Positions 1-64,000 of a stretch of DNA of 64,000 bases are shown one piece after another. The position numbers and the translations under genes are program-made. This stretch comes from Bacteroidota bacterium (lineage in GTDB: Bacteria > Bacteroidota > Bacteroidia > Bacteroidales > UBA10428): NCBI GenBank assembly GCA_016699695.1, contig CP065006.1, positions 2,589,435-2,653,434 on the forward strand, read 5' to 3'. Below the pieces are notes generated by a model. That model was given only the letters and a program-made list of their open reading frames with translations. It searched no databases and had not been told where the DNA came from. Every line of letters starts with the position of its first letter. Position 1 is the stretch's first letter.

Positions 1-2401
1 TTAAAAAGTTATTTTGTTGATCAGGATTTTGTTTTTTGTTTCTGTGGTAATCGCCATTGAAATATACCTTGTAGGATACCGATGGTAGGATAGGCAAAAA
101 GCTTATCTGGTAGAGCGATAAGGGTTTATAGTCATTGGAGTAATCAGGAGGCAACATTTCGCCTCCGGCATTGGTGTTATAGTAATAGTAATACGGGTTT
201 TGCCTGTTATAGGCGTTATACACCGAAAATGTCCATACGGCCTGGTTTCCCCTGTCGGTTTTAGTGGAGTAATTAAACGAAATATCGAGCCGGTGATAGG
301 GTTTTAACCGCCCGCTGTTGCGTGCGCCATAGATAAGGGCTTCATAGATATCGGAATGATAATAGGCATCGTAACCCGAAGCGGAAGTATATTGCCTGCC
401 AACCGCAGGTGTATAAGGTATGCCCGATTGATAGATCCATGCCAGGTTTACCTGCCATTTTTCATTCAGTTGGTGAATAATTCCTGTGGAGAAACTATGA
501 GGCCGGTCGAAATCGAATAAAAATTCATTCCCCTTATTGATATTGCCATACTCCCGGGTGGTATGCGACCAGGTATAACTCAAAAATCCTGTCCAGTTTC
601 CGTAATTCTTTCGGCCAAAAACCTCCAGTCCTTCTGATTTGCCTTTGCCTCCTGTTTCAATTTTCGATTTCCAGTTCGGATCACCCATAATGGTCGAATA
701 TCCTTCTTTATAGGTTGCCAGATTGGCCATGTTTTTATAATACAAGTTAAATTCCACACTATAAGCCCCTTCAGAAAGGTTTGCCTGCCAGCCAATTGTA
801 TACTGGTCGGCATAAGAAGGCTGAATGGTTTGGTCGGAAGGAATCCAGATTTCGTTGTTGTTGATACTTCCTGGCGTAAACAACAGATGCGAATATTGAT
901 ACACCCTCATAAAACTCAGGTTGACAGAATGGGTAGTGTTCAACCCAAAGTTCAGAAGAATACGCGGTTCAACGTGAAAGGCTGTATAGTTGCTGGTTGC
1001 GTAATTGTTGAGCCTGAGACCTACATTGGCATAAGATCTTTCGAGAAATTTAAAATGGTTTTCGACAAAAACACTCGATTGAAGGGCATTGATTGGCTCT
1101 GCATTCTGCTGCTGTTGGTTGCTCTGGGTAGTTTGGTTTGGTAAATTAACAAGGTAAGATGAATGCAAGCCAAATTCAAGCGAGTAGTTTCTTGCCACAT
1201 TGTATTTCCAATCGGAGAACAAAGAAAAATCTTTTATAGAGGAGAGAAATTCTTTTGTATAATCATACTCGCCCTCACCTGTTTTAGTAATAAACTCCTG
1301 TGAGTTTTTAAGCCTGTAACGCGTTACAGAAAGGCTGTTTGCTGACCGTAATTTACCCGAAAAGATTGTATTCCATTTTGCCGATAGCAGCCAATTACCC
1401 CAAATATAGCCTGTGGTTCTTTTTTCACCCTCTTGCAGTTCGCTGCTCTTCATTTTGTAATGAAGGTAATCATCGCCCTGGTATAAATTGAGGTGCACAC
1501 TATTTTTTGTATTCGGTTTCCAGCTATACTTTGCATTGATATCGTGAAAACCATAAAATAAGGTATAATAGTTTCCATCGGCTACCTGCGTTAACAATGC
1601 CGAAAATAGCCCCAGAAAAGAAGTTCGGCCTGTAACAATAAAGGTCGATTTCTTTTTTATGGGCCCTTCGATGCTGAATGACAAATCGGTAATACCAATA
1701 CTAAATGAACCTTTTAAGCCCGATGCACTTCCTTCGCGCTGGGCAATATCTACAATGGAAGAAAGTTTGCCTCCATATTTTGCCGGAAACCCTCCTTTGT
1801 ACACATTCACATTGTTGATCATATCGGGGTTAAAAACCGAGGTAAAACCACCCAGATGGTTGACATAAATTAACGGAGTATTGTCTATCAGATATTGGTT
1901 CTGCCCGGGATCGCCGCCACGAACCAATAATAGACTGGAACCTTCGTTAGTGGTTTGAATACCAGGCAACAATTGAATAGTTTTTAGCACATCGGGCTGG
2001 GAGCCTAAGGATGGAAGAAATTGTAACTCTTTAATCGAAAGGCTGGAAACATTCGGAATCTGTGCTTTTGGGGCATTCACGATCACTTCTTCCAACAGGT
2101 TATCAGATGTTAGCTCAACCTGTATAATTGTATCTGTTATTGATTCAGTTTTAATTATTAAACGATTATACCCGACATAAACCACCTCTAAACAAGCATT
2201 GTTTGCGACTATGATAGAAAAGTAGCCGTTATTGTCGGTGATGGTTGCATGGTGTGTGCCTTGCTCAAGAATATGGCTACCCACCAGCAATTCGCCTGTG
2301 CCTTTATCCTTTACAAACCCCGAAACCCTGACCTGTGAATGCAGAAAAAGATTGTGCAGGACAATAAAACCTAAAAGAGTAACTGTTTTCCTAAACCCCA
2401 T
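1..2401 (-). CDS. TonB-dependent outer-membrane receptor (C-terminal end runs off the window start)
   Basis: Absent from the ORF track because it is open to the window edge. My translation from the reverse-strand ATG (2401-2399) gives MGFRKTVTLLGFIVLHNLFLHSQVRVSGFVKDKGTGELLVGSHILEQG..., a signal peptide plus CarboxypepD_reg-like start. A plug-like stretch follows: LPSLGSQPDVLKTIQLLPGIQTTNEGSSLLLVRGGDPGQNQYLIDNTPLIY...VYKGGFPAKYGG. The frame is still open at nt 2-4. Confidence 0.85.
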   Translation of the reverse strand, partial: MGFRKTVTLLGFIVLHNLFLHSQVRVSGFVKDKGTGELLVGSHILEQGTHHATITDNNGYFSIIVANNACLEVVYVGYNRLIIKTESITDTIIQVELTSDNLLEEVIVNAPKAQIPNVSSLSIKELQFLPSLGSQPDVLKTIQLLPGIQTTNEGSSLLLVRGGDPGQNQYLIDNTPLIYVNHLGGFTSVFNPDMINNVNVYKGGFPAKYGGKLSSIVDIAQREGSASGLKGSFSIGITDLSFSIEGPIKKKSTFIVTGRTSFLGLFSALLTQVADGNYYTLFYGFHDINAKYSWKPNTKNSVHLNLYQGDDYLHYKMKSSELQEGEKRTTGYIWGNWLLSAKWNTIFSGKLRSANSLSVTRYRLKNSQEFITKTGEGEYDYTKEFLSSIKDFSLFSDWKYNVARNYSLEFGLHSSYLVNLPNQTTQSNQQQQNAEPINALQSSVFVENHFKFLERSYANVGLRLNNYATSNYTAFHVEPRILLNFGLNTTHSVNLSFMRVYQYSHLLFTPGSINNNEIWIPSDQTIQPSYADQYTIGWQANLSEGAYSVEFNLYYKNMANLATYKEGYSTIMGDPNWKSKIETGGKGKSEGLEVFGRKNYGNWTGFLSYTWSHTTREYGNINKGNEFLFDFDRPHSFSTGIIHQLNEKWQVNLAWIYQSGIPYTPAVGRQYTSASGYDAYYHSDIYEALIYGARNSGRLKPYHRLDISFNYSTKTDRGNQAVWTFSVYNAYNRQNPYYYYYNTNAGGEMLPPDYSNDYKPLSLYQISFLPILPSVSYKVYFNGDYHRNKKQNPDQQNNFL

Positions 2402-2406
2402 AGTTT

Positions 2407-3357
2407 TTAATAATAATAAGTTTCAGGTTGAACGGTATCGGAAACCACCAGGGAATATCCCGCAAAAATGCCATATCCATCTTCGATATTCGAATACAGA
2501 TTAAAATTTGTTACTGCACCTGTACCGACTTCAGTGGGGTACCTTCCTGTTTCATAAAGGTATAATTGCTTCAAATACAGATAGTAGTCATAAGAAATTG
2601 CCCGAAGCTCAACAAGAAGTGGATCTAAGTTATTCTGCGAGCCCGAAGTATAATTAAGAAGCATGGTATACGAATCAGTTTTAATCAGCTCGTTGCTAAA
2701 TACAGGAATAGGAACTCCTTCGTGAAGTAAAACAGGATCTGTGATGTGTATCAATTGGGCGAATGTCACTGTATCGTATTGTATAAGTTTAATTGCAATC
2801 TGAAAATAAAGTGCTTCATCCGGCTTATTCTTAAATGTTACTTTCAGGGCAGGGTATGTATTGCCCTCTTCATCTATGCCGGCATAATTAATACTTTGTA
2901 TCGCCAATATTTCAGGAGTATCGGGAATGGTGTTGCTGCAAACGATGGTTTCATAGCCAGGAATCGTGACCTGAAGGGTATAAGTTTCAAGTGGCTGAAC
3001 AACAGTTTTGGCCTGGTAAATGCTATTTCCGATGGATGTAAGGGTATCATTCTCCCTCGAACCTGAAGCCACGATTACAAGGGCATTTTCTATCCCTGCA
3101 AGTTTCGAGTTGCCGATTTTATCGGTAAACGATACATGCACTTTAAGTAAACTGTCGGCAATTAAAATGCTGTTAATTACAGGAATGGATGGAAAGTCAG
3201 GAAAATCGTCCTCCACAAGCTTTCGACAACATACCGTATTGTAGGCAAGCAGTATTAAAACAATAAGCCGACTAAACCAATAAATTGACCCAAAAGCTTT
3301 TGGACTTTTAAACCCAACAGTGTATAGAGGTATTTTTTTCATTTGCTTTTGGGTCAA
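2407..3357 (-). CDS. DUF4249-like lipoprotein (partner of the TonB-dependent receptor)
   Basis: 316-aa ORF ending 5 nt before the receptor start. It has a hydrophobic N-terminus with Cys (LLAYNTVCC). The C-terminal NIEDGYGIFAGYS motif is, as I recall, typical of DUF4249 proteins encoded next to TonB receptors. Confidence 0.7.
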   Translation of the reverse strand: MTQKQMKKIPLYTVGFKSPKAFGSIYWFSRLIVLILLAYNTVCCRKLVEDDFPDFPSIPVINSILIADSLLKVHVSFTDKIGNSKLAGIENALVIVASGSRENDTLTSIGNSIYQAKTVVQPLETYTLQVTIPGYETIVCSNTIPDTPEILAIQSINYAGIDEEGNTYPALKVTFKNKPDEALYFQIAIKLIQYDTVTFAQLIHITDPVLLHEGVPIPVFSNELIKTDSYTMLLNYTSGSQNNLDPLLVELRAISYDYYLYLKQLYLYETGRYPTEVGTGAVTNFNLYSNIEDGYGIFAGYSLVVSDTVQPETYYY

Positions 3358-5908: not shown

Positions 5909-6988
5909 TTATTCGATGAAACCGCTCAACCATAAAAATTGCTTGTAATTCTCCGGATCGTTGGTAATGAGGGTAACCCCTTTGCAATTGTTTCCTCTGA
6001 ATCCGGATGAGTTGAATTCAATCACTACATGGGTGGAGTCGCCTGGGGGAATTAGTGTTTTTTGTGGCATGGCAGCTGTGCATCCGCAACTCGATTTTAC
6101 GGCCCTTATCACCAGATCGCGACCACCGGTATTGTATACCGGAAACTCTACCTGTACAACTTTGCCATGAGAAATGGTATCGAAAAACATGGTGTCAATA
6201 GGCAATGTGGCTTTTGGTTTCACCAGCAAGTCAGCCTCAGTCAAGAACAGGAAGTTTTCGCGAATATTGGCCGATACGATCAACTGGTTTGTATCGGGTT
6301 TCTGACCTTTTACCTTAATGCTTACCCGGTCTATTACAAAATCCCAATCGTCGACTAACTCAGTGTTGTAGGTAAAGGCTACATATCCGGTAGAGTTTGG
6401 GGCCAGTTTATCGAACATTTTTTGTATGCTCAGGTGGGCTGGTAAATCGCTAAAGGAAATATCAATGGCTTTGTTGCTAAGATTTCGAACAGGAAGAAAC
6501 TGCGTTGGCTTGTCGCCCTTGTAAATGTAACCAAAACTTTGTTGAAGCTGCCTGAGGGCAATGGCACCCATTTGGTATTTAAATTCGCCTTTGCGTGTGC
6601 CCGAAACAACAATCCCTTTCACCTCCAGGGGGCTGGGAGAATTTACGGCATTACTGAAAACCATCAACTTCTTATCGAAAAAGCCTGTTTTTCCAACCGG
6701 ATTGATCGTGGCGCTTATTTTGGCAGTATGCAATGGAAGTATCGGATCTTTCGTAAAGGATACATCCGACAAGCCGGGGGCAATAATTCTGTGTATGACA
6801 AGGGCAGAATCGCCAGAATTGGTGAATGTAAACTCTATCGGAAAGCTGCCGTCGGCTTCATAGGCAGGTTCAAAATACAGGGTAGGCGAGTCGAATGCTA
6901 TACGGGCACTGTCGGCAGAGGAAGCAGAAAGATTCAGAATGAACACAATGCTTATGATTGTCAAGGAAGTATATCGCAGCATGAACAT
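5909..6988 (-). CDS. DUF1573 domain-containing secreted protein
   Basis: 359 aa with a signal peptide. The C-terminal module has the KSSCGCT motif characteristic of DUF1573, and an earlier related repeat (FTFTNSGDSALVI / FPVYNTGGRDLVI) is present. Confidence 0.7.
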   Translation of the reverse strand: MFMLRYTSLTIISIVFILNLSASSADSARIAFDSPTLYFEPAYEADGSFPIEFTFTNSGDSALVIHRIIAPGLSDVSFTKDPILPLHTAKISATINPVGKTGFFDKKLMVFSNAVNSPSPLEVKGIVVSGTRKGEFKYQMGAIALRQLQQSFGYIYKGDKPTQFLPVRNLSNKAIDISFSDLPAHLSIQKMFDKLAPNSTGYVAFTYNTELVDDWDFVIDRVSIKVKGQKPDTNQLIVSANIRENFLFLTEADLLVKPKATLPIDTMFFDTISHGKVVQVEFPVYNTGGRDLVIRAVKSSCGCTAAMPQKTLIPPGDSTHVVIEFNSSGFRGNNCKGVTLITNDPENYKQFLWLSGFIE

Positions 6989-7120
6989 TAAATTGATTTA
7001 AAAATTAAGTTATGCCATTTATACCAGTCGTGCAACTAAAAAGTTCCGGCTTGGGCGGTAAATTTCGGAGTAATTAATCTATTTTTATGCCTTCAAAGTT
7101 TAGCTTGTTATTTTTATTGG

Positions 7121-10100
7121 ATGGTAAAACGCATTTTAATTCCCCTGTTTTTGTGTTACCTCGCAAGCAATGTGAATGGCCAGTTTTACAATGGTCATCA
7201 GATGTTGTTTGGAAAAAATCGTGTGCAGTACCGCGAGTTTTATTGGAATTATTATCGATTTGACCGTTTTGATACTTATTACAGTGAAAATGGCGACAAG
7301 CTGGCTCGTTATGCTTCTGAATTTGCCGAAAAAGAAATTGAACGAATCGAGTCATTTTTTGATTATAATCTTGATAAGCGAATTATTTTTCTTGTTTACA
7401 ACAAGCTTTCCGATTTCCGGCAAAGCAACATCGGATTAGTTACCGGCAAAACTGAGTCGAACATCGGGGGTACTTTTCGTATCGACAACAACAAAGCATT
7501 TTTATATTTTGAAGGTGATTTTGAAGCATTCGAAAAACAAATTACCTCTGCCATTAGTCAAATACTGATCAGCGAAATGATTTACGGGCAGCAATTTCGC
7601 GACAATGCAGCCAATTCCACCCTCATAAACCTGCCAGCCTGGTACATAGATGGTTTGGTAGCTTACCTATCGAAAGACTGGGATTTTGAAACGGAAAACA
7701 GAGTGAAAGATGGAGTTGTAAATGGCAAGTACAAAAAATTCAATCGTTTACAAGGTGATGATGCTGCTTATGCGGGACACTCCTTCTGGCGTTATATCAG
7801 CGAGGTGTATGGTGAGTCGGTGATTCCGGGAATTTTATATATGACCAAGATAAACCGAAATGCCAACCAGGGTTTTTATTATGTCTTGGGCTCATCGATT
7901 AAAGACTTGTCGGCCGAATGGTTTTATTATTACAACGATTTGTATGCCTCACTGGAAGATACCGGTGAAGTCCCCTCTGGTAAACCTATCTTAAAGCGGC
8001 CAAAGAAAAAAAGAGTGTATCAGCAACTAAGCCTTAACCCTGTAAGTAATCATGTGGCTTATGTTACCAATACCAAAGGTCGCTATGCCATTTGGCTTTA
8101 CGATTCCAATACACAGAAACAAAAAAAGTTACTTCAGCGCGAGCACAAACTCGAGCAAATAACCGATTATTCTTATCCGGTGCTGGCATGGTACCCGAAT
8201 GGACGGATCTTAACCTTTATTGTCGAGGAAAAGGGCGGCCTGGTAATGTATTACTATACTTTTGGTGAGAAAAAACTTACCGCCAGGAATATTCTTTATT
8301 TCGATAAAGTGCTGGGCTATTCCTTCTCTCCCGATGGTTCTTTAATAGCCATTTCGGCAGTTAAAAACGGGCAGACCGATATTTTTGTACATTCGGTAGC
8401 TTCCGGAACCAATTTTCAGATTACCAACGATGTAGCCGATGACTTTAATCCACGTTTTATAAGCAATGGAAAGCAAATTATTTTTGCTTCCAACCGGGAG
8501 ACGGATTTACTTAGTGAAGAAATTGAAAAACAAACCCGTTCGTTTACACAAGACTTGTTTATATACGATTTTGAGAGTAAACCCGATAAGCTTTTCCGGC
8601 TTGCCGATTCGCCTTATGTAGAGAAAGATAAACCATACGAATTAGGAGCCAACCAGTTTATCTCACTCAGCAACAAGAGCGGTATCGTGAACCGTTACTA
8701 CTCAAAATTCGATAGCACCATCAGCTATGTCGATACAACCGTGCACTACCGTTATTATGCCATTACCCAACCCATATCGAATTATAGCAGGAGTATTTTG
8801 GACCAGGATTATAAGCCTTCGACCAATACCTTGGGAGAAATAGTGTTTTCGAAAGGGAAGTACAACATGTACCTCCATGAATTGGACCTTCCGGAAAATG
8901 GTTCCATAAAGCTTCAAGAAACCGATTTCAGACAGCAAAAAACACAGAAGCTTTTAATCGCAGACAGTATTAGTAAGATAAAAATTGCCAAAATTCCGCT
9001 CGATTCTGCACTCAACAACATCATAATCAGTGGCAACGACACCATTAATCTGATTGTCAGTGAAGTTGATATTAACAATTACCTGTTTGAAATTGAACGC
9101 GTTAAAATGTTAAACGCACAATTTAAAGACGAAAATATTCTATTGGAGATTGTTCCACCAAAAGATGAGGAGGCTGAAAGGGCCCGTATTTACCAGCGTG
9201 CATTTTACCAGGATTATGTGACAGGGCAAATCGATTTTAGTTTTCTAAGCGAGTCCTATCAGACCTTTACCGGTGGAGCAGTGTATTATAATCCCGGATT
9301 AAACCTGGCTTTTCGATTGGGCACAAAAGATTTATTCGAGAATTATCGTGTAATTGCCGGTTTACGCCTACCTCTCGATTTTCAAAGCAGCGAGTACCTC
9401 ATTGGTCTAGAGATGCTAAAAGACAGGTTAGACAAACAATTGTTTTTTCATAGGCAAAGTTTTAACGCATTGACCCAGGATGAAATACCCTACCAGGTGC
9501 GCAATGTCAGCAACCAGATTTATGGTGTTTTTCGCTATCCGTTCAGTCAGGTTGCATCGCTCTCGGCTACTATCGGAGCAAGACAGGATAAAACAATTTT
9601 TCAGCCGGTGAGCACTTCGCTTACGGTTATTAACCAGGCACTGGCCCAACCCAACGTCGAGAAACTCTGGATAACACCTAAACTTGAATATGTGTTCGAT
9701 AACACCCGGCAGCTCGGGTTAAACCTTCCTGCCGGTACGCGCCTAAAAATTTTTACGGAGTATTACCAGATGGTCAATAAACCCTATTCTAACCTGGTAA
9801 CCTGGGGAGCCGACGTAAGACATTACCTGGTGATACACCGAAACCTCATATGGGCCAATCGCATTGCTACCGGATCGTCGCTGGGTACTGCCAGGCTAAT
9901 CTATTACCTGGGTGGGGTCGATAACTGGACCAATCTTTCCAGCCGCACGCCTACTTTTATTCCGCTCAGCGAAATCAGGATTACTGATAACGTAAACTAT
10001 GCCTTTCAGACAGTGGCCACCAACATGAGAGGCTTTTCGCAGAATATCCGCAATGGAAGTAATTTCGCCCTTTTCAATTCTGAGCTTCGTTTACCAATCA

Positions 10101-12065: not shown

Positions 12066-12117
12066 TTCCGAATTTCTAACCCGTCGGTTTAGGCCGGCAT
12101 AAAATTATTTCGATATT

Positions 12118-12285
12118 ATGGCTTACGTAATTAGCAATGAGTGTACCGCGTGCGGAACTTGTTTACCAGAGTGTCCATCAGAGGCTATTTCAGAGGGTGA
12201 TATCTACAAAATTGATCCGGATGCTTGCATCGATTGTGGTGCTTGTGCCGATGTGTGCCCTGTAGAAGCAATCAGCGCAGCTTAG
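12118..12285 (+). CDS. 2x[4Fe-4S] ferredoxin (55 aa)
   Basis: Not in the ORF track because it is under 60 aa. My translation is MAYVISNECTACGTCLPECPSEAISEGDIYKIDPDACIDCGACADVCPVEAISAA*, which carries two CxxCxxCxxxCP motifs. Confidence 0.85.
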   Translation: MAYVISNECTACGTCLPECPSEAISEGDIYKIDPDACIDCGACADVCPVEAISAA

Positions 12286-52769: not shown

Positions 52770-52844
52770 TGGGCGATGACGGATTCGAACCGCCGACCCT
52801 CTGGGTGTAAACCAGATGCTCTGAACCAGCTGAGCTAATCGCCC
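52770..52844 (-). tRNA. tRNA-Val (anticodon TAC)
   Basis: The reverse complement is GGGCGATTAGCTCAGCTGGTTCAGAGCATCTGGTTTACACCCAGAGGGTCGGCGGTTCGAATCCGTCATCGCCCA. It folds as a cloverleaf with a 7-bp acceptor stem, GCTC/GAGC D stem, TCTGG/CCAGA anticodon stem with loop TT-TAC-AC, and GGCGG/CCGTC T stem with TTCGAAT loop. Confidence 0.95.
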
Positions 52845-61763: not shown

Positions 61764-62402
61764 CTATTCTTCGCGGTGTTTCACAAAATAGGCAACTTTC
61801 TCTAACGAGGTAATCATATCGTATTCTTCGAGGTAAATGTCTTTCTCGAGGTTCAGATTTACTGTTGTGAAATTCAGAAGGCCTTTTATGCCGGTGCTTA
61901 CCAATACCTTAGCCATGTCTCGTGCCGATTGGGTGGGTACCGTGAGTATAGCAATGGAGATGTCTTTCATTGCAATTATTTCCCTCAGACGGTCTATCGA
62001 ATAACAGGGTATGTTGTTGACCGATATCCCAATTTTTTTGGGGTCGATGTCGAAAGCTGCCACCAGGTTCAGTTGAGGACGATTTCCAAGAAAATAGGTG
62101 GTTATTGCCTTGCCAAGATTACCATATCCTACTACTGCCACATTTAATGGATCCTGGGTGTCAATAATCCGGCTTATTACCTCAATTAGTTCATCAACTT
62201 TATAACCTTTTCGCTGGCTCGACGAATAACCTATAAACATGATATCGCGTCTTACCTGAACAGCAGTAATATTAAGTAGGTTTGCCAGTTCATGCGAATA
62301 GATCCGGGTCTTTCCATTGTTTAAACAGTTGTAAAGAGCCCGGCGGTATTGACTTAGCCGTTCTACTGTTTTTTCGGGTAATTTTTTCATCCAGGTATGC
62401 AC
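61764..62402 (-). CDS. rex: redox-sensing transcriptional repressor Rex
   Basis: 212 aa with an N-terminal winged helix (TVERLSQYRRALYNC...IYSHELANLLNITAVQVRRDI) and a Rossmann fold (VAVVGYGNLGKA). Confidence 0.9.
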   Translation of the reverse strand: MHTWMKKLPEKTVERLSQYRRALYNCLNNGKTRIYSHELANLLNITAVQVRRDIMFIGYSSSQRKGYKVDELIEVISRIIDTQDPLNVAVVGYGNLGKAITTYFLGNRPQLNLVAAFDIDPKKIGISVNNIPCYSIDRLREIIAMKDISIAILTVPTQSARDMAKVLVSTGIKGLLNFTTVNLNLEKDIYLEEYDMITSLEKVAYFVKHREE

Positions 62403-62451
62403 AATGGTATTTCACAAAAATAAGAATTATCATTCACTCATTGATAGTATA

Positions 62452-62469
62452 TTGTTATTTTCATAACAA
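62452..62469. promoter_or_regulatory. candidate Rex operator: perfect palindrome TTGTTAT-TTTC-ATAACAA
   Basis: This is a 7-4-7 inverted repeat with the same architecture as the Rex box consensus TTGTGAA-N4-TTCACAA. It lies in the rex / [2Fe-2S] divergent intergenic region, 39 nt upstream of 62508. Confidence 0.6.
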
Positions 62470-62507
62470 AATGTGGAAGCCGGATTTTTTTATTAATTTA
62501 ACCTAAA

Positions 62508-62771
62508 ATGAATTTTATGATCAATAAAATTCCAATAAAAATCTGTTTGGGTAGTTCCTGCTTCTCCCGCGGTAATCACGAGCTTGTAGCCGTAATTAGG
62601 CGTTACCTCATGGCTAAAAAACTAGAGGATAAAATATCGTTTAGTGGCGATCATTGTACGAAAGAGTGTCTCAAAGGCCCTAATATACAAGTAGGAGGAA
62701 AAGTGATTCATGGAATTAACAAGGATAATGTGTGCGAGATTCTGGATACTAACCTGAAAGATCTTTTATAA
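62508..62771 (+). CDS. thioredoxin-like [2Fe-2S] ferredoxin (NuoE/HydC-like fold)
   Basis: 87 aa with Cys spacing CLGSSC ...(32 aa)... CTKEC, that is C-x4-C ... C-x3-C. Confidence 0.75.
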   Translation: MNFMINKIPIKICLGSSCFSRGNHELVAVIRRYLMAKKLEDKISFSGDHCTKECLKGPNIQVGGKVIHGINKDNVCEILDTNLKDLL

Positions 62772-62774
62772 ATT

Positions 62775-64000
62775 ATGGCTGCTACTCCCCTTGTATTAAT
62801 CGATCCAAAAAAGTGCACCAATTGCTACACATGCGTGCGCATATGCCCGGTGAAAGCAATTCGTGCCGATGTCGATAAGCCATCGCCTATTATCCAAAAT
62901 AAACAATGCATAGGTTGTGGCGATTGTATTACTACCTGCGTACCAAAAGCAATTTCGTACCGGAGTTCCATTGAAAGTGCCAGGCTGGTGCTAAAAACCA
63001 AGGGAATTAAAGTAGCTATCGTATCCCCCAGTATTTGTGCCGAGTTTCATGATGTTTCGGATTACAGAAAGTTTGTGCAAATGATTAAATCCATGGGCAT
63101 TAACTATGTGAATGAAGTTTCTTTTGGGGTGGATTTACTGGCCTATAAATACCTCAATTTGTTTAGCGATTTTAAAGGACGGTATTATATTTCATCCTGC
63201 GACCCGGTAGTAGTAGCCTTCGTTGAGAAATACCATCCAAACCTGGTGAGTAATCTGGCTCCTTTTGTTCCACCCATGATTGCTACAGCCAAGGTAGTTC
63301 GAAAAAAATACGGAAACGATATTCAGGTAATTTACATTGGTCCCGACATTGCCAGCAAAGATGTAGCCTTGCAATCGCCACCCGATGGTAAGGTAGATGT
63401 GGTGTTAACATTTCCAGAATTGCGTCAACTTTTCGACGATATGAAAATTGCCGAACGTACAGTAGAATTTTCCGAGTTCGATGGCCCAATTGGCTATAAA
63501 GGTAGTTTGTATCCTATACGCAATGGATTTCTCCAAGCTGCCGATATCGACGAGAATCTGCTCACAGGAGAAGTAGCTGCTGTGGAAGGGAAGAAAGAGA
63601 TGCTCGAGTCAATCGATGAGTTCGAAGAGAATGTGAATGTTATACACAAGCATATTCACGTTACTTATGGAAATTCGCTCTCCGGGCCAGGTATTACAGG
63701 AAGAGGCAACAAGCTGTTTAAAGAGCACTTAGTGATTAAATATGCCAATAAGCGGCTCACAAATTTTTTTCGATCAGAGTGGTATGATAACCTTCAGACT
63801 TACCTCTCACTCGATTTAAGCAGAGAATTCAAACCAAACAACCAGCGCATACCGGAACCACCTGAAGAGGCTATTCAAAAAACCCTAGAATCGATGGGTT
63901 GGAAGCAGAATCCAAATATTAATTGCGGACAATGTGGCTATTCCACCTGCCAGGAGTTTGTTTTAAACCTGACCAAAGGCATTGTCATTCCTGAAATGTG
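62775..64000 (+). CDS. [FeFe]-hydrogenase-like protein (2x[4Fe-4S] + Fe_hyd_lg_C-like domain + CGxCGxxxC Fe-S motif), 3' end beyond window
   Basis: Not in the track because it is open to the window end. My translation is MAATPLVLIDPKKCTNCYTCVRICPVKAI...CIGCGDCITTCVPKAI...VAIVSPSICAEF...GRYYISSCDPVVVAFVEKYHPNL...VIYIGPDIASKDVAL...VDVVLTFPELRQLF...IHVTYGNSLSGPGITGRG...NCGQCGYSTCQEF... Confidence 0.8.
   Translation, partial: MAATPLVLIDPKKCTNCYTCVRICPVKAIRADVDKPSPIIQNKQCIGCGDCITTCVPKAISYRSSIESARLVLKTKGIKVAIVSPSICAEFHDVSDYRKFVQMIKSMGINYVNEVSFGVDLLAYKYLNLFSDFKGRYYISSCDPVVVAFVEKYHPNLVSNLAPFVPPMIATAKVVRKKYGNDIQVIYIGPDIASKDVALQSPPDGKVDVVLTFPELRQLFDDMKIAERTVEFSEFDGPIGYKGSLYPIRNGFLQAADIDENLLTGEVAAVEGKKEMLESIDEFEENVNVIHKHIHVTYGNSLSGPGITGRGNKLFKEHLVIKYANKRLTNFFRSEWYDNLQTYLSLDLSREFKPNNQRIPEPPEEAIQKTLESMGWKQNPNINCGQCGYSTCQEFVLNLTKGIVIPEM

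Follow-up and report, generated by a model that had tools for sequence, protein, structure and literature searches.

An [FeFe]-hydrogenase-like protein of uncultured Bacteroidales lacks all H-cluster ligands and is probably a signalling derivative of the sensory hydrogenases

Putative sensory [FeFe] hydrogenases of groups C and D are recognised by a C-terminal Cx2Cx4Cx16C motif (PMC8163306). These proteins, called HydS, are defined as bearing the H-cluster (PMC8163306, PMC13104023, PMC8924675), which was shown spectroscopically for TmHydS and TamHydS, and the group C (M2f) architecture has been described for TmHydS (PMC8163306, PMC13104023). HydS and the related HfsB would turn a signal into control of a partner phosphatase or kinase, and the C-terminal cluster of TamHydS is unresponsive to H2, by which it is not reduced (PMC13104023). 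Here, we describe a HydS-like gene at the end of a 64,000-nucleotide stretch of DNA (the window) from a Bacteroidota bacterium (Bacteroidales, UBA10428; assembly GCA_016699695.1, contig CP065006.1, positions 2,589,435 to 2,653,434). All four H-cluster ligands and the equivalent of Lys358 are gone from the encoded protein, further called the sensor, and we consider it probable that the sensor is a functional, H-cluster-free signalling derivative of HydS/HfsB (group C, M2f), in other words a 'pseudo-hydrogenase'.

Like T. maritima HydS, R. albus HydS and Thermoanaerobacterium HfsB, the sensor combines two [4Fe-4S] motifs, an H-domain, a Cx2Cx4Cx16C motif and a PAS domain in this order, and as in hfsB-hfsC of Thermoanaerobacterium its gene is followed by one for a Ser/Thr (PP2C) phosphatase (PMC11837493). 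With group C HydS/HfsB it further shares a genomic link to HydABC, in a sister lineage, and a predicted regulation by Rex, and it is nested in their radiation. It differs from these proteins in having neither the four H-cluster cysteines nor an equivalent of Lys358, in having rex where they have hydCBA as divergent neighbour, and in belonging to uncultured Bacteroidales instead of Firmicutes or Thermotogae. TamHydS of Thermoanaerobacter mathranii (group D, M2e) resembles the sensor in its N-terminal clusters, its C-terminal Cx2Cx4Cx16C motif and an altered active-site pocket with no conserved proton-transfer Cys (PMC8163306, PMC13104023). However, TamHydS has no PAS domain and possesses a functional H-cluster with measurable H2 turnover, whereas in the sensor a PAS domain is present and the H-cluster ligands are absent. 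A eukaryotic precedent for an [FeFe]-hydrogenase fold that has no hydrogenase activity and serves another Fe-S-related role is Nar1/NARF/IOP1; here the cysteines that bind Fe-S clusters at the H-domain position have been kept, and the role of Nar1 is in the assembly of Fe-S in the cytosol. In contrast to Nar1, the present protein has lost all H-site cysteines, is bacterial (encoded in Bacteroidales metagenome-assembled genomes, MAGs), carries a PAS domain and is linked to a phosphatase. A functional analogue is the HoxBC-HoxJ-HoxA system of Ralstonia eutropha, in which a hydrogenase-derived input also feeds a phosphorylation cascade (PMC5707799). The regulatory [NiFe] hydrogenase HoxBC is, however, unrelated by descent and is a genuine H2 sensor whose catalytic metal site is preserved.

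The open reading frame (ORF) of the sensor starts with the ATG at 62775 on the forward strand and is cut by the window end (62775..64000, +), leaving 408 of about 622 codons visible. Its H-domain (62970..63899, +; residues ~66-375) is readily recognised: amino acids (aa) 80-284 match Fe_hyd_lg_C (PF02906) in Pfam with 107 bits (E 1.5e-30, cutoff 22), the predicted local distance difference test (pLDDT) values of this domain are 80-93 in the AlphaFold2 (AF2) model, and Foldseek matches the model to CbA5H, HydABC, DdH and CpI (E 1e-17 to 1e-14). An earlier note on this DNA, made from the letters of the window, had placed a hydrogenase domain in the ORF from 62775, and these matches bear it out. 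No second H-domain gene was found within the 64-kb window.

The ligand positions were mapped in three ways: by HMMER alignment (phmmer) to hydrogenases of the PDB, including T. maritima HydA (7p5h); by a MAFFT L-INS-i alignment of 151 sequences, consisting of the query and 150 diverse relatives drawn from an exhaustive HMMER search (4073 matches at E<1e-3); and by a 15-sequence alignment with canonical HydA of related Bacteroidales genomes, of which the motifs LTSCCPGW, MPCLAKKYE and EIMACPGGCIGGGGQP were used for comparison. All three agree on the mapping, and the alignment to 7p5h pairs ISSCDP with TSCCP and GPDIASK with MPCTAKK. The CpI numbering of the ligands, which we take from the canonical motifs, is in line with PMC8163306. 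The signature P1 (TSCCPxW) is left as ISSCDPVV (63189-63212, +; residues 139-146), P2 (MPCxxKxxE) as GPDIASKD (63339-63362, +; residues 189-196) and P3 (ExMxCxxGCxxGGG) as HVTYGNSLSGPG (63657-63692, +; residues 295-306). The CpI ligands C300, C355, C499 and C503 thus correspond to D143, D191, G299 and S301, respectively, while C299 corresponds to C142 and K358 to S194. In the clade of the sensor, positions 143 and 299 are invariant, 191 is D, E or N, 194 is mostly S or T, and 142 and 301 vary, the latter between S, A, G, M, N and Y. P3 of the window protein aligns as HVTYGN-SLSGPG, with one residue deleted relative to sisters with a Cx2C, and the register of S301 is fixed by the G-P-G after it.

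The earlier note had read these same three motifs by eye, with the ligand Cys changed to Asp in the first two and to Gly and Ser in the third. Its coordinates were exact for the second and third motifs and close for the first, for which it gave 63192-63206. The Ser it meant may be S303, which is immaterial because residues 286-312 of the window protein contain no Cys at all, in whatever register. Misalignment was considered and rejected, given that no register in the three alignments puts a Cys at any ligand site; the reading by eye thereby withstands rigorous alignment. A compensating Cys elsewhere in the H-domain was rejected as well: none is conserved there, Cys being present at position 142 in 57/121 proteins and at position 295 in 19/121, in a non-complementary way.

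Nearly all diverse relatives in the 151-sequence alignment carry xxxCP, GPC and C(x2-3)C at these places; the lineage of the query has xxxDP, GP[DEN] and YGN-SL instead. The four ligand Cys are kept by nearly all of the 146 other representatives, as the earlier note had assumed for known sensory HydS, and the literature that we searched treats HydS as H-cluster enzymes. The sensor therefore has the fold of the H-domain and none of the P1, P2 and P3 signatures of a catalytic [FeFe] hydrogenase. Because the H-cluster ligands, by which the family is defined, are absent, it should be classed neither as a sensory hydrogenase nor as a hydrogenase of any other kind.

To follow the ligand positions among relatives, conservation was counted over the window protein and its 120 closest homologues (54-94% identity, ~615-630 aa each). 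Asp143 and Lys195 are present in 121/121 and Gly299 in 119/121, and Asn300 is near-invariant in the Cys-less homologues. No Cys is conserved anywhere in the H-domain of these homologues, whereas all 12 Cys of the accessory clusters are conserved at 97-100%, the four C-terminal ones at 100%. A scan with one genome per species found a relative in 442 genomes, and the loci of the best 80, all from uncultured Bacteroidales/Bacteroidota MAGs, were analysed. Cys-less sensors occur in 49 of these 80 loci, namely in all those at an identity of at least 50%, and all four Cys are retained in 29 (47-51% identity). The two remaining loci are intermediate, with C/L/S/- at the ligand sites in L063 (4053-5897) and D/V/N/- in L077 (6001-7839), in which all four Cys are lost. 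In a neighbour-joining tree the Cys-less proteins form one clade with L063 and L077 as its sister, and clade and intermediates together are nested in Cys-bearing Bacteroidales HydS-like proteins, within the wider HydS radiation. Ligand loss thus maps to a single Bacteroidales clade, which has since evolved under strong purifying selection. As to the surroundings of the intermediates, L063 adjoins hydCBA and L077 has hydC/hydA-like genes 4-6 kb downstream, and neither has an adjacent rex.

A dead enzyme would likewise lose all its catalytic ligands, and a few database relatives (P0139, P0187 and P0255) look frameshifted. That the gene is a decaying pseudogene, or its pattern an alignment artefact, is nevertheless extremely improbable and, as regards decay, is refuted by the comparative data. 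The part of the frame that the window shows is uninterrupted, and 49 species-level orthologs likewise have an intact frame. The ratio of non-synonymous to synonymous substitution rates (dN/dS) of the H-domain is 0.043 between the window and L001 (dS 0.89), with values of 0.03-0.11 for five further pairs of close relatives, the replacement residues at 143 and 299 are invariant, and the operon partners are conserved. Because they are fixed across the 49 orthologs, the substitutions are more than chance. Relaxed constraint confined to the H-domain was also ruled out, since the mean pairwise identity of this domain is 0.62 in the Cys-less clade as against 0.60 in the Cys-bearing sisters. The D/D/G/S pattern put forward in the earlier note is accordingly conserved rather than random at D143 and G299, but not at position 191, where D, E and N alternate, nor at the variable position 301.

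Only five positions cleanly separate Cys-less from Cys-bearing proteins, namely 143 (D/C), 299 (G/C), 317 (E/R), 559 and 602. Position 317 is R or K in Cys-bearing proteins, Q or H in the intermediates and E throughout the Cys-less clade, a charge reversal that would be expected if an anionic cluster had disappeared. The change from R to E, together with an Asp143 that is invariant exactly at the C300 position and a near-invariant G299 and N300, might also speak for a pocket that was rebuilt with oxygen ligands (Asp143, Asp/Glu/Asn191, Asn300, Glu317 and Lys195). The protein would then be a sensor of a ligand other than H2, such as a mononuclear Fe, Mn or Mg, a non-Cys-ligated Fe-S cluster or a small-molecule signal, and the H-domain is indeed constrained as strongly as in the Cys-bearing sisters, suggesting a specific role. 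We nonetheless regard a rebuilt pocket as unlikely: only a single carboxylate is invariant, D, E and N are all found at position 191 and S, A, G, M, N and Y at position 301, the near-pocket residues C142, H293 and H295 of the window protein lack conservation across the clade, the H-domain offers no other conserved Cys, and the conservation of this domain can be explained equally well if it serves the Fe-S relay and the PAS domain in a docking or structural role. That such a pocket would define a new class of sensor with PAS-PP2C output, which together with Rex would have taken over control of the fermentative redox balance in anaerobic Bacteroidales, is quite unlikely too. Of the two options left by the earlier note, we favour the hydrogenase fold repurposed as a redox-signalling scaffold; a new cofactor arrangement is less likely because Asp143 is the only potential ligand that is invariant.

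What surrounds the altered H-domain has been retained: the three accessory cluster sites, the PAS domain and the tail are, like the 2Fe-2S and PP2C partners, under purifying selection. Two N-terminal [4Fe-4S] ferredoxin motifs (62793..62954, +; Pfam Fer4 dicluster, aa 7-60), seen already in the earlier note, hold the cysteines C14, C17, C20, C24 and C45, C48, C51, C55, eight Cys arranged as two CxxCxxCxxxCP motifs, as is required of a HydS/HfsB protein, and conserved at 97-100%. The C-terminal accessory motif Cx2Cx4Cx16C (63921..64000, +) matches PF04060 at aa 380-402 and includes NCGQCGYSTCQEF (residues 383-395, nucleotides 63921-63959), which the earlier note had taken correctly, and at the right coordinates, for an Fe-S motif of the sensory group C type. 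C384, C387 and C392 lie within the window, and the codon of C409 starts at its last two bases, TG. The window stops before the rest of the protein, for which we rely on orthologs. Ortholog P0001 (622 aa, 94% identical to the window sensor), from a 73.7-kb contig of the Bacteroidales MAG GCA_035913795.1, completes the Cx2Cx4Cx16C motif with C409 and continues into a long helix, which is followed by a PAS domain and then by a helical tail of high conservation. The PAS matches are weak (PAS_8, E 2.9e-4; PAS_9, E 5.8e-3; both under the Pfam cutoffs), and the AF2 model of P0001 has, at residues 469-562, helices and a sheet of five strands that resemble a PAS domain. Between the Cys-less and Cys-bearing groups conservation is highest in the C-terminal tail, with an identity of 0.71. 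NCBIfam has no model specific for the sensor (the best, TIGR04105, reaches 136 bits with a cutoff of 450), and the database names of its relatives are generic, e.g. '4Fe-4S binding protein' or 'iron only hydrogenase large subunit-like protein'.

The operon of the sensor begins with a co-oriented gene for a thioredoxin-like [2Fe-2S] protein of 87 aa (62508..62771, +; PF01257, 32 bits) with the ligands C13, C18, C50 and C54 (CX4C...CX3C). This gene, rightly named in the earlier note, lies directly upstream of the sensor gene in nearly all 80 loci, Cys-less and Cys-bearing alike. The contig of the ortholog carries, one after the other, genes for Rex (-), the 2Fe-2S protein (+), the sensor (+), a SpoIIE/PP2C phosphatase of 394 aa (+) and pyruvate kinase (-). 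The phosphatase gene directly follows the sensor gene in nearly all loci, and the order 2Fe-2S, sensor, SpoIIE is kept in almost all of them. Hence, of the output domains for which the earlier note had proposed to look at the C-terminus, PAS is present, while the phosphatase is a separate downstream gene and not a fused domain. The PP2C motifs DGMGHG, SDG and DDxS (DDIS in the ortholog) are intact. The C-terminal ~160 aa of the phosphatase (L001 12600-13081) matched nothing in Pfam, in NCBIfam or among the sequences of the PDB, and this conserved domain could be a module for docking of the substrate or of the sensor.

Divergent from the operon lies rex, encoding the NADH/NAD+-sensing repressor (61764..62390, -; NCBIfam NF003995, 201 bits with a cutoff of 126; Pfam Put_DNA-bind_N and CoA_binding). 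As called mechanically, the ORF begins with a GTG at 62402, and an in-frame ATG lies four codons in, at 62390; this ATG is the probable start, giving 208 aa, the length of the gene call in L001, and with it the shared intergenic region becomes 117 bp. The region contains the Rex-type operator TTGTTATTTTCATAACAA (62452..62469), a perfect 7-4-7 palindrome situated 38 nucleotides upstream of the 2Fe-2S ATG and ~60 nucleotides upstream of the rex ATG, so that both the divergent rex and the palindrome of the earlier note were recovered. The pattern TTGTTAN6TAACAA has this sole match in the 64 kb, even with one mismatch permitted, and an identical box is present in L001 and L004-L009. Over all loci, the 400 bp upstream of the 2Fe-2S genes, 28.9 kb in total, contain the looser pattern TTGTNAN6TNACAA 21 times, versus 6 times in the remaining 847 kb, an enrichment upstream of the operon of ~100-fold. 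The published Rex consensus is TTGTGAANNNNTTCACAA, TTGTGAAN4TTCACAA (PMC2883068), and it is also given in a passage of PMC6391272 that cites Ravcheev 2012 for it.

In the Cys-bearing sister loci one or two Rex-type boxes (TTGTTAN6TAACAA) are located in the intergenic region shared with hydCBA. Among the Cys-less loci, the subclade with the box is the window's own, at an identity of at least 64%. A Rex box in every Cys-less locus was ruled out: the intergenic region between rex and the 2Fe-2S gene in L020-L049 (~110-130 bp) is conserved, with the blocks AGCTAAAATAC, ACATGTT and TCTTTTTTATCTTTACA, and has no canonical box. The block centred on ACATGT may be an operator of another kind. As a separate observation, the TCTTTTTTATCTTTACA block resembles the Bacteroidetes -7 promoter element (TAnnTTTG-like). 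Rex control of the operon, as predicted from the box, has good support in the Cys-bearing sisters and in the subclade of the window; among Cys-less loci we limit the claim to this subclade because most others have no box. The Rex control suggested by the earlier note is thus supported for the window and its nearest relatives, while the canonical box is not seen across the whole Cys-less clade.

Most Cys-bearing sister loci, as well as L063, are divergent to hydC-hydB-hydA, the genes of the electron-bifurcating HydABC. In every Cys-less locus that includes upstream DNA, rex takes this divergent position and the flanks contain no hydCBA, apart from two exceptions in which a hydB homologue lies ~4.4 kb downstream (L016/L085 and L018). 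In L085 (13086-20314), the Cys-less sensor-phosphatase pair is followed by hypE-hypA-hypB, hydB, HydA and hydC, and this HydA (591 aa) has all canonical motifs. Because L085 has both, a bona fide [FeFe] hydrogenase can coexist near a Cys-less sensor, and the presence of such a HydA implies that this genome has the HydE/F/G maturases.

From these data a mechanism may be proposed for the sensor as an H-cluster-free signalling protein. Without the H-cluster it would neither bind nor split H2, and it would still control its partner phosphatase through the PAS domain and the tail; we infer that this control is retained because the output side is what is most conserved between Cys-bearing and Cys-less forms. 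The input would be the redox state of the Fe-S relay that is left, with the 2Fe-2S partner or ferredoxin feeding it. That Fe-S redox is the specific input is a tentative proposal, which we hold to be somewhat less probable than its negation. Alternatively, the input could be the abundance of the sensor, set by Rex in response to NADH/NAD+. The phosphatase would then dephosphorylate a target that tunes fermentative redox metabolism, which in some genomes would include the nearby bona fide HydABC hydrogenase.

Several points weigh against this reading. The cofactor content of the sensor is predicted from its sequence. The invariant Asp143 at a former ligand site, along with the conserved K195, N300 and E317, could mean that the pocket binds something and was not merely filled in. 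The canonical Rex box is present in only 8/49 Cys-less loci and is missing from most of the more distant ones, and the operon contains no kinase or STAS partner.

The neighbourhood data also bear on a different explanation, in which the sensor has no input of its own and acts as a constitutive adaptor, i.e. a locked subunit or activator of the PP2C phosphatase, all regulation having moved to transcription by Rex. The adjacency to rex was gained exactly where the H-cluster was lost, the PAS domain and the tail, on the output side, are the most conserved parts, and in TamHydS the C-terminal cluster is insensitive to H2 (PMC13104023). Such an adaptor is improbable all the same, as the 12 accessory Cys and the 2Fe-2S partner, for which a purely structural adaptor would have no need, are strictly kept and most Cys-less loci are without a detectable Rex box.

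A description of an H-cluster-free HydS was not found in the full-text literature that we searched, although prior mention cannot be fully excluded; the variant is thus uncharacterised as far as this literature goes, as the earlier note had supposed. It does not embody a new principle, and it offers a natural experiment on how sensory hydrogenases signal. The signalling chassis consists of the Fe-S relay, PAS domain and tail of the sensor and of its 2Fe-2S and PP2C partners, and the Cys-less lineage indicates that this chassis serves a function open to selection even where H2 chemistry is gone. Matched pairs of Cys-less and Cys-bearing proteins, together with the intermediates L063 and L077, provide a comparison set for biochemical dissection. 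The swap from hydCBA to rex at the same divergent promoter represents a regulatory rewiring that accompanied the loss of the cofactor. Moreover, annotation based on Pfam or hidden Markov models only would miscount these genes as hydrogenases in Bacteroidales of anoxic sediment and wastewater.

Some further observations were made in the loci and in the window. The Cys-bearing Bacteroidales HydS-like proteins (L051-L082, with the sensor gene at ~6001-7850 in each locus, and P0122-P0138) have a P3 of the Cx2C type, FYCEGCLMGPG, and not the canonical Cx3C, and their Lys358 equivalent is S, A, N or T, with the Lys displaced by one position (GPCIDSKEE); judged by these motifs, they may have an atypical H-cluster environment. 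The HydA of L051 (~1300-3025, -), beside a Cys-bearing sensor, is of group A3 type with LSSSCPAW and VPCPSKKFE, and its equivalent of the proton-transfer Cys299 is Ser, despite the look of a bifurcating catalytic subunit. L085 juxtaposes genes of [NiFe]-maturation type (HypE-like AIRS, HypA and CobW/HypB-like) with an FeFe HydABC operon, which is unusual. Elsewhere in the window, which has nothing else that relates to hydrogenases, a stand-alone ferredoxin-like ORF of 59 aa with two [4Fe-4S] motifs is located at 12103-12282 (+), and the single tRNA gene at 52770-52844 (-).

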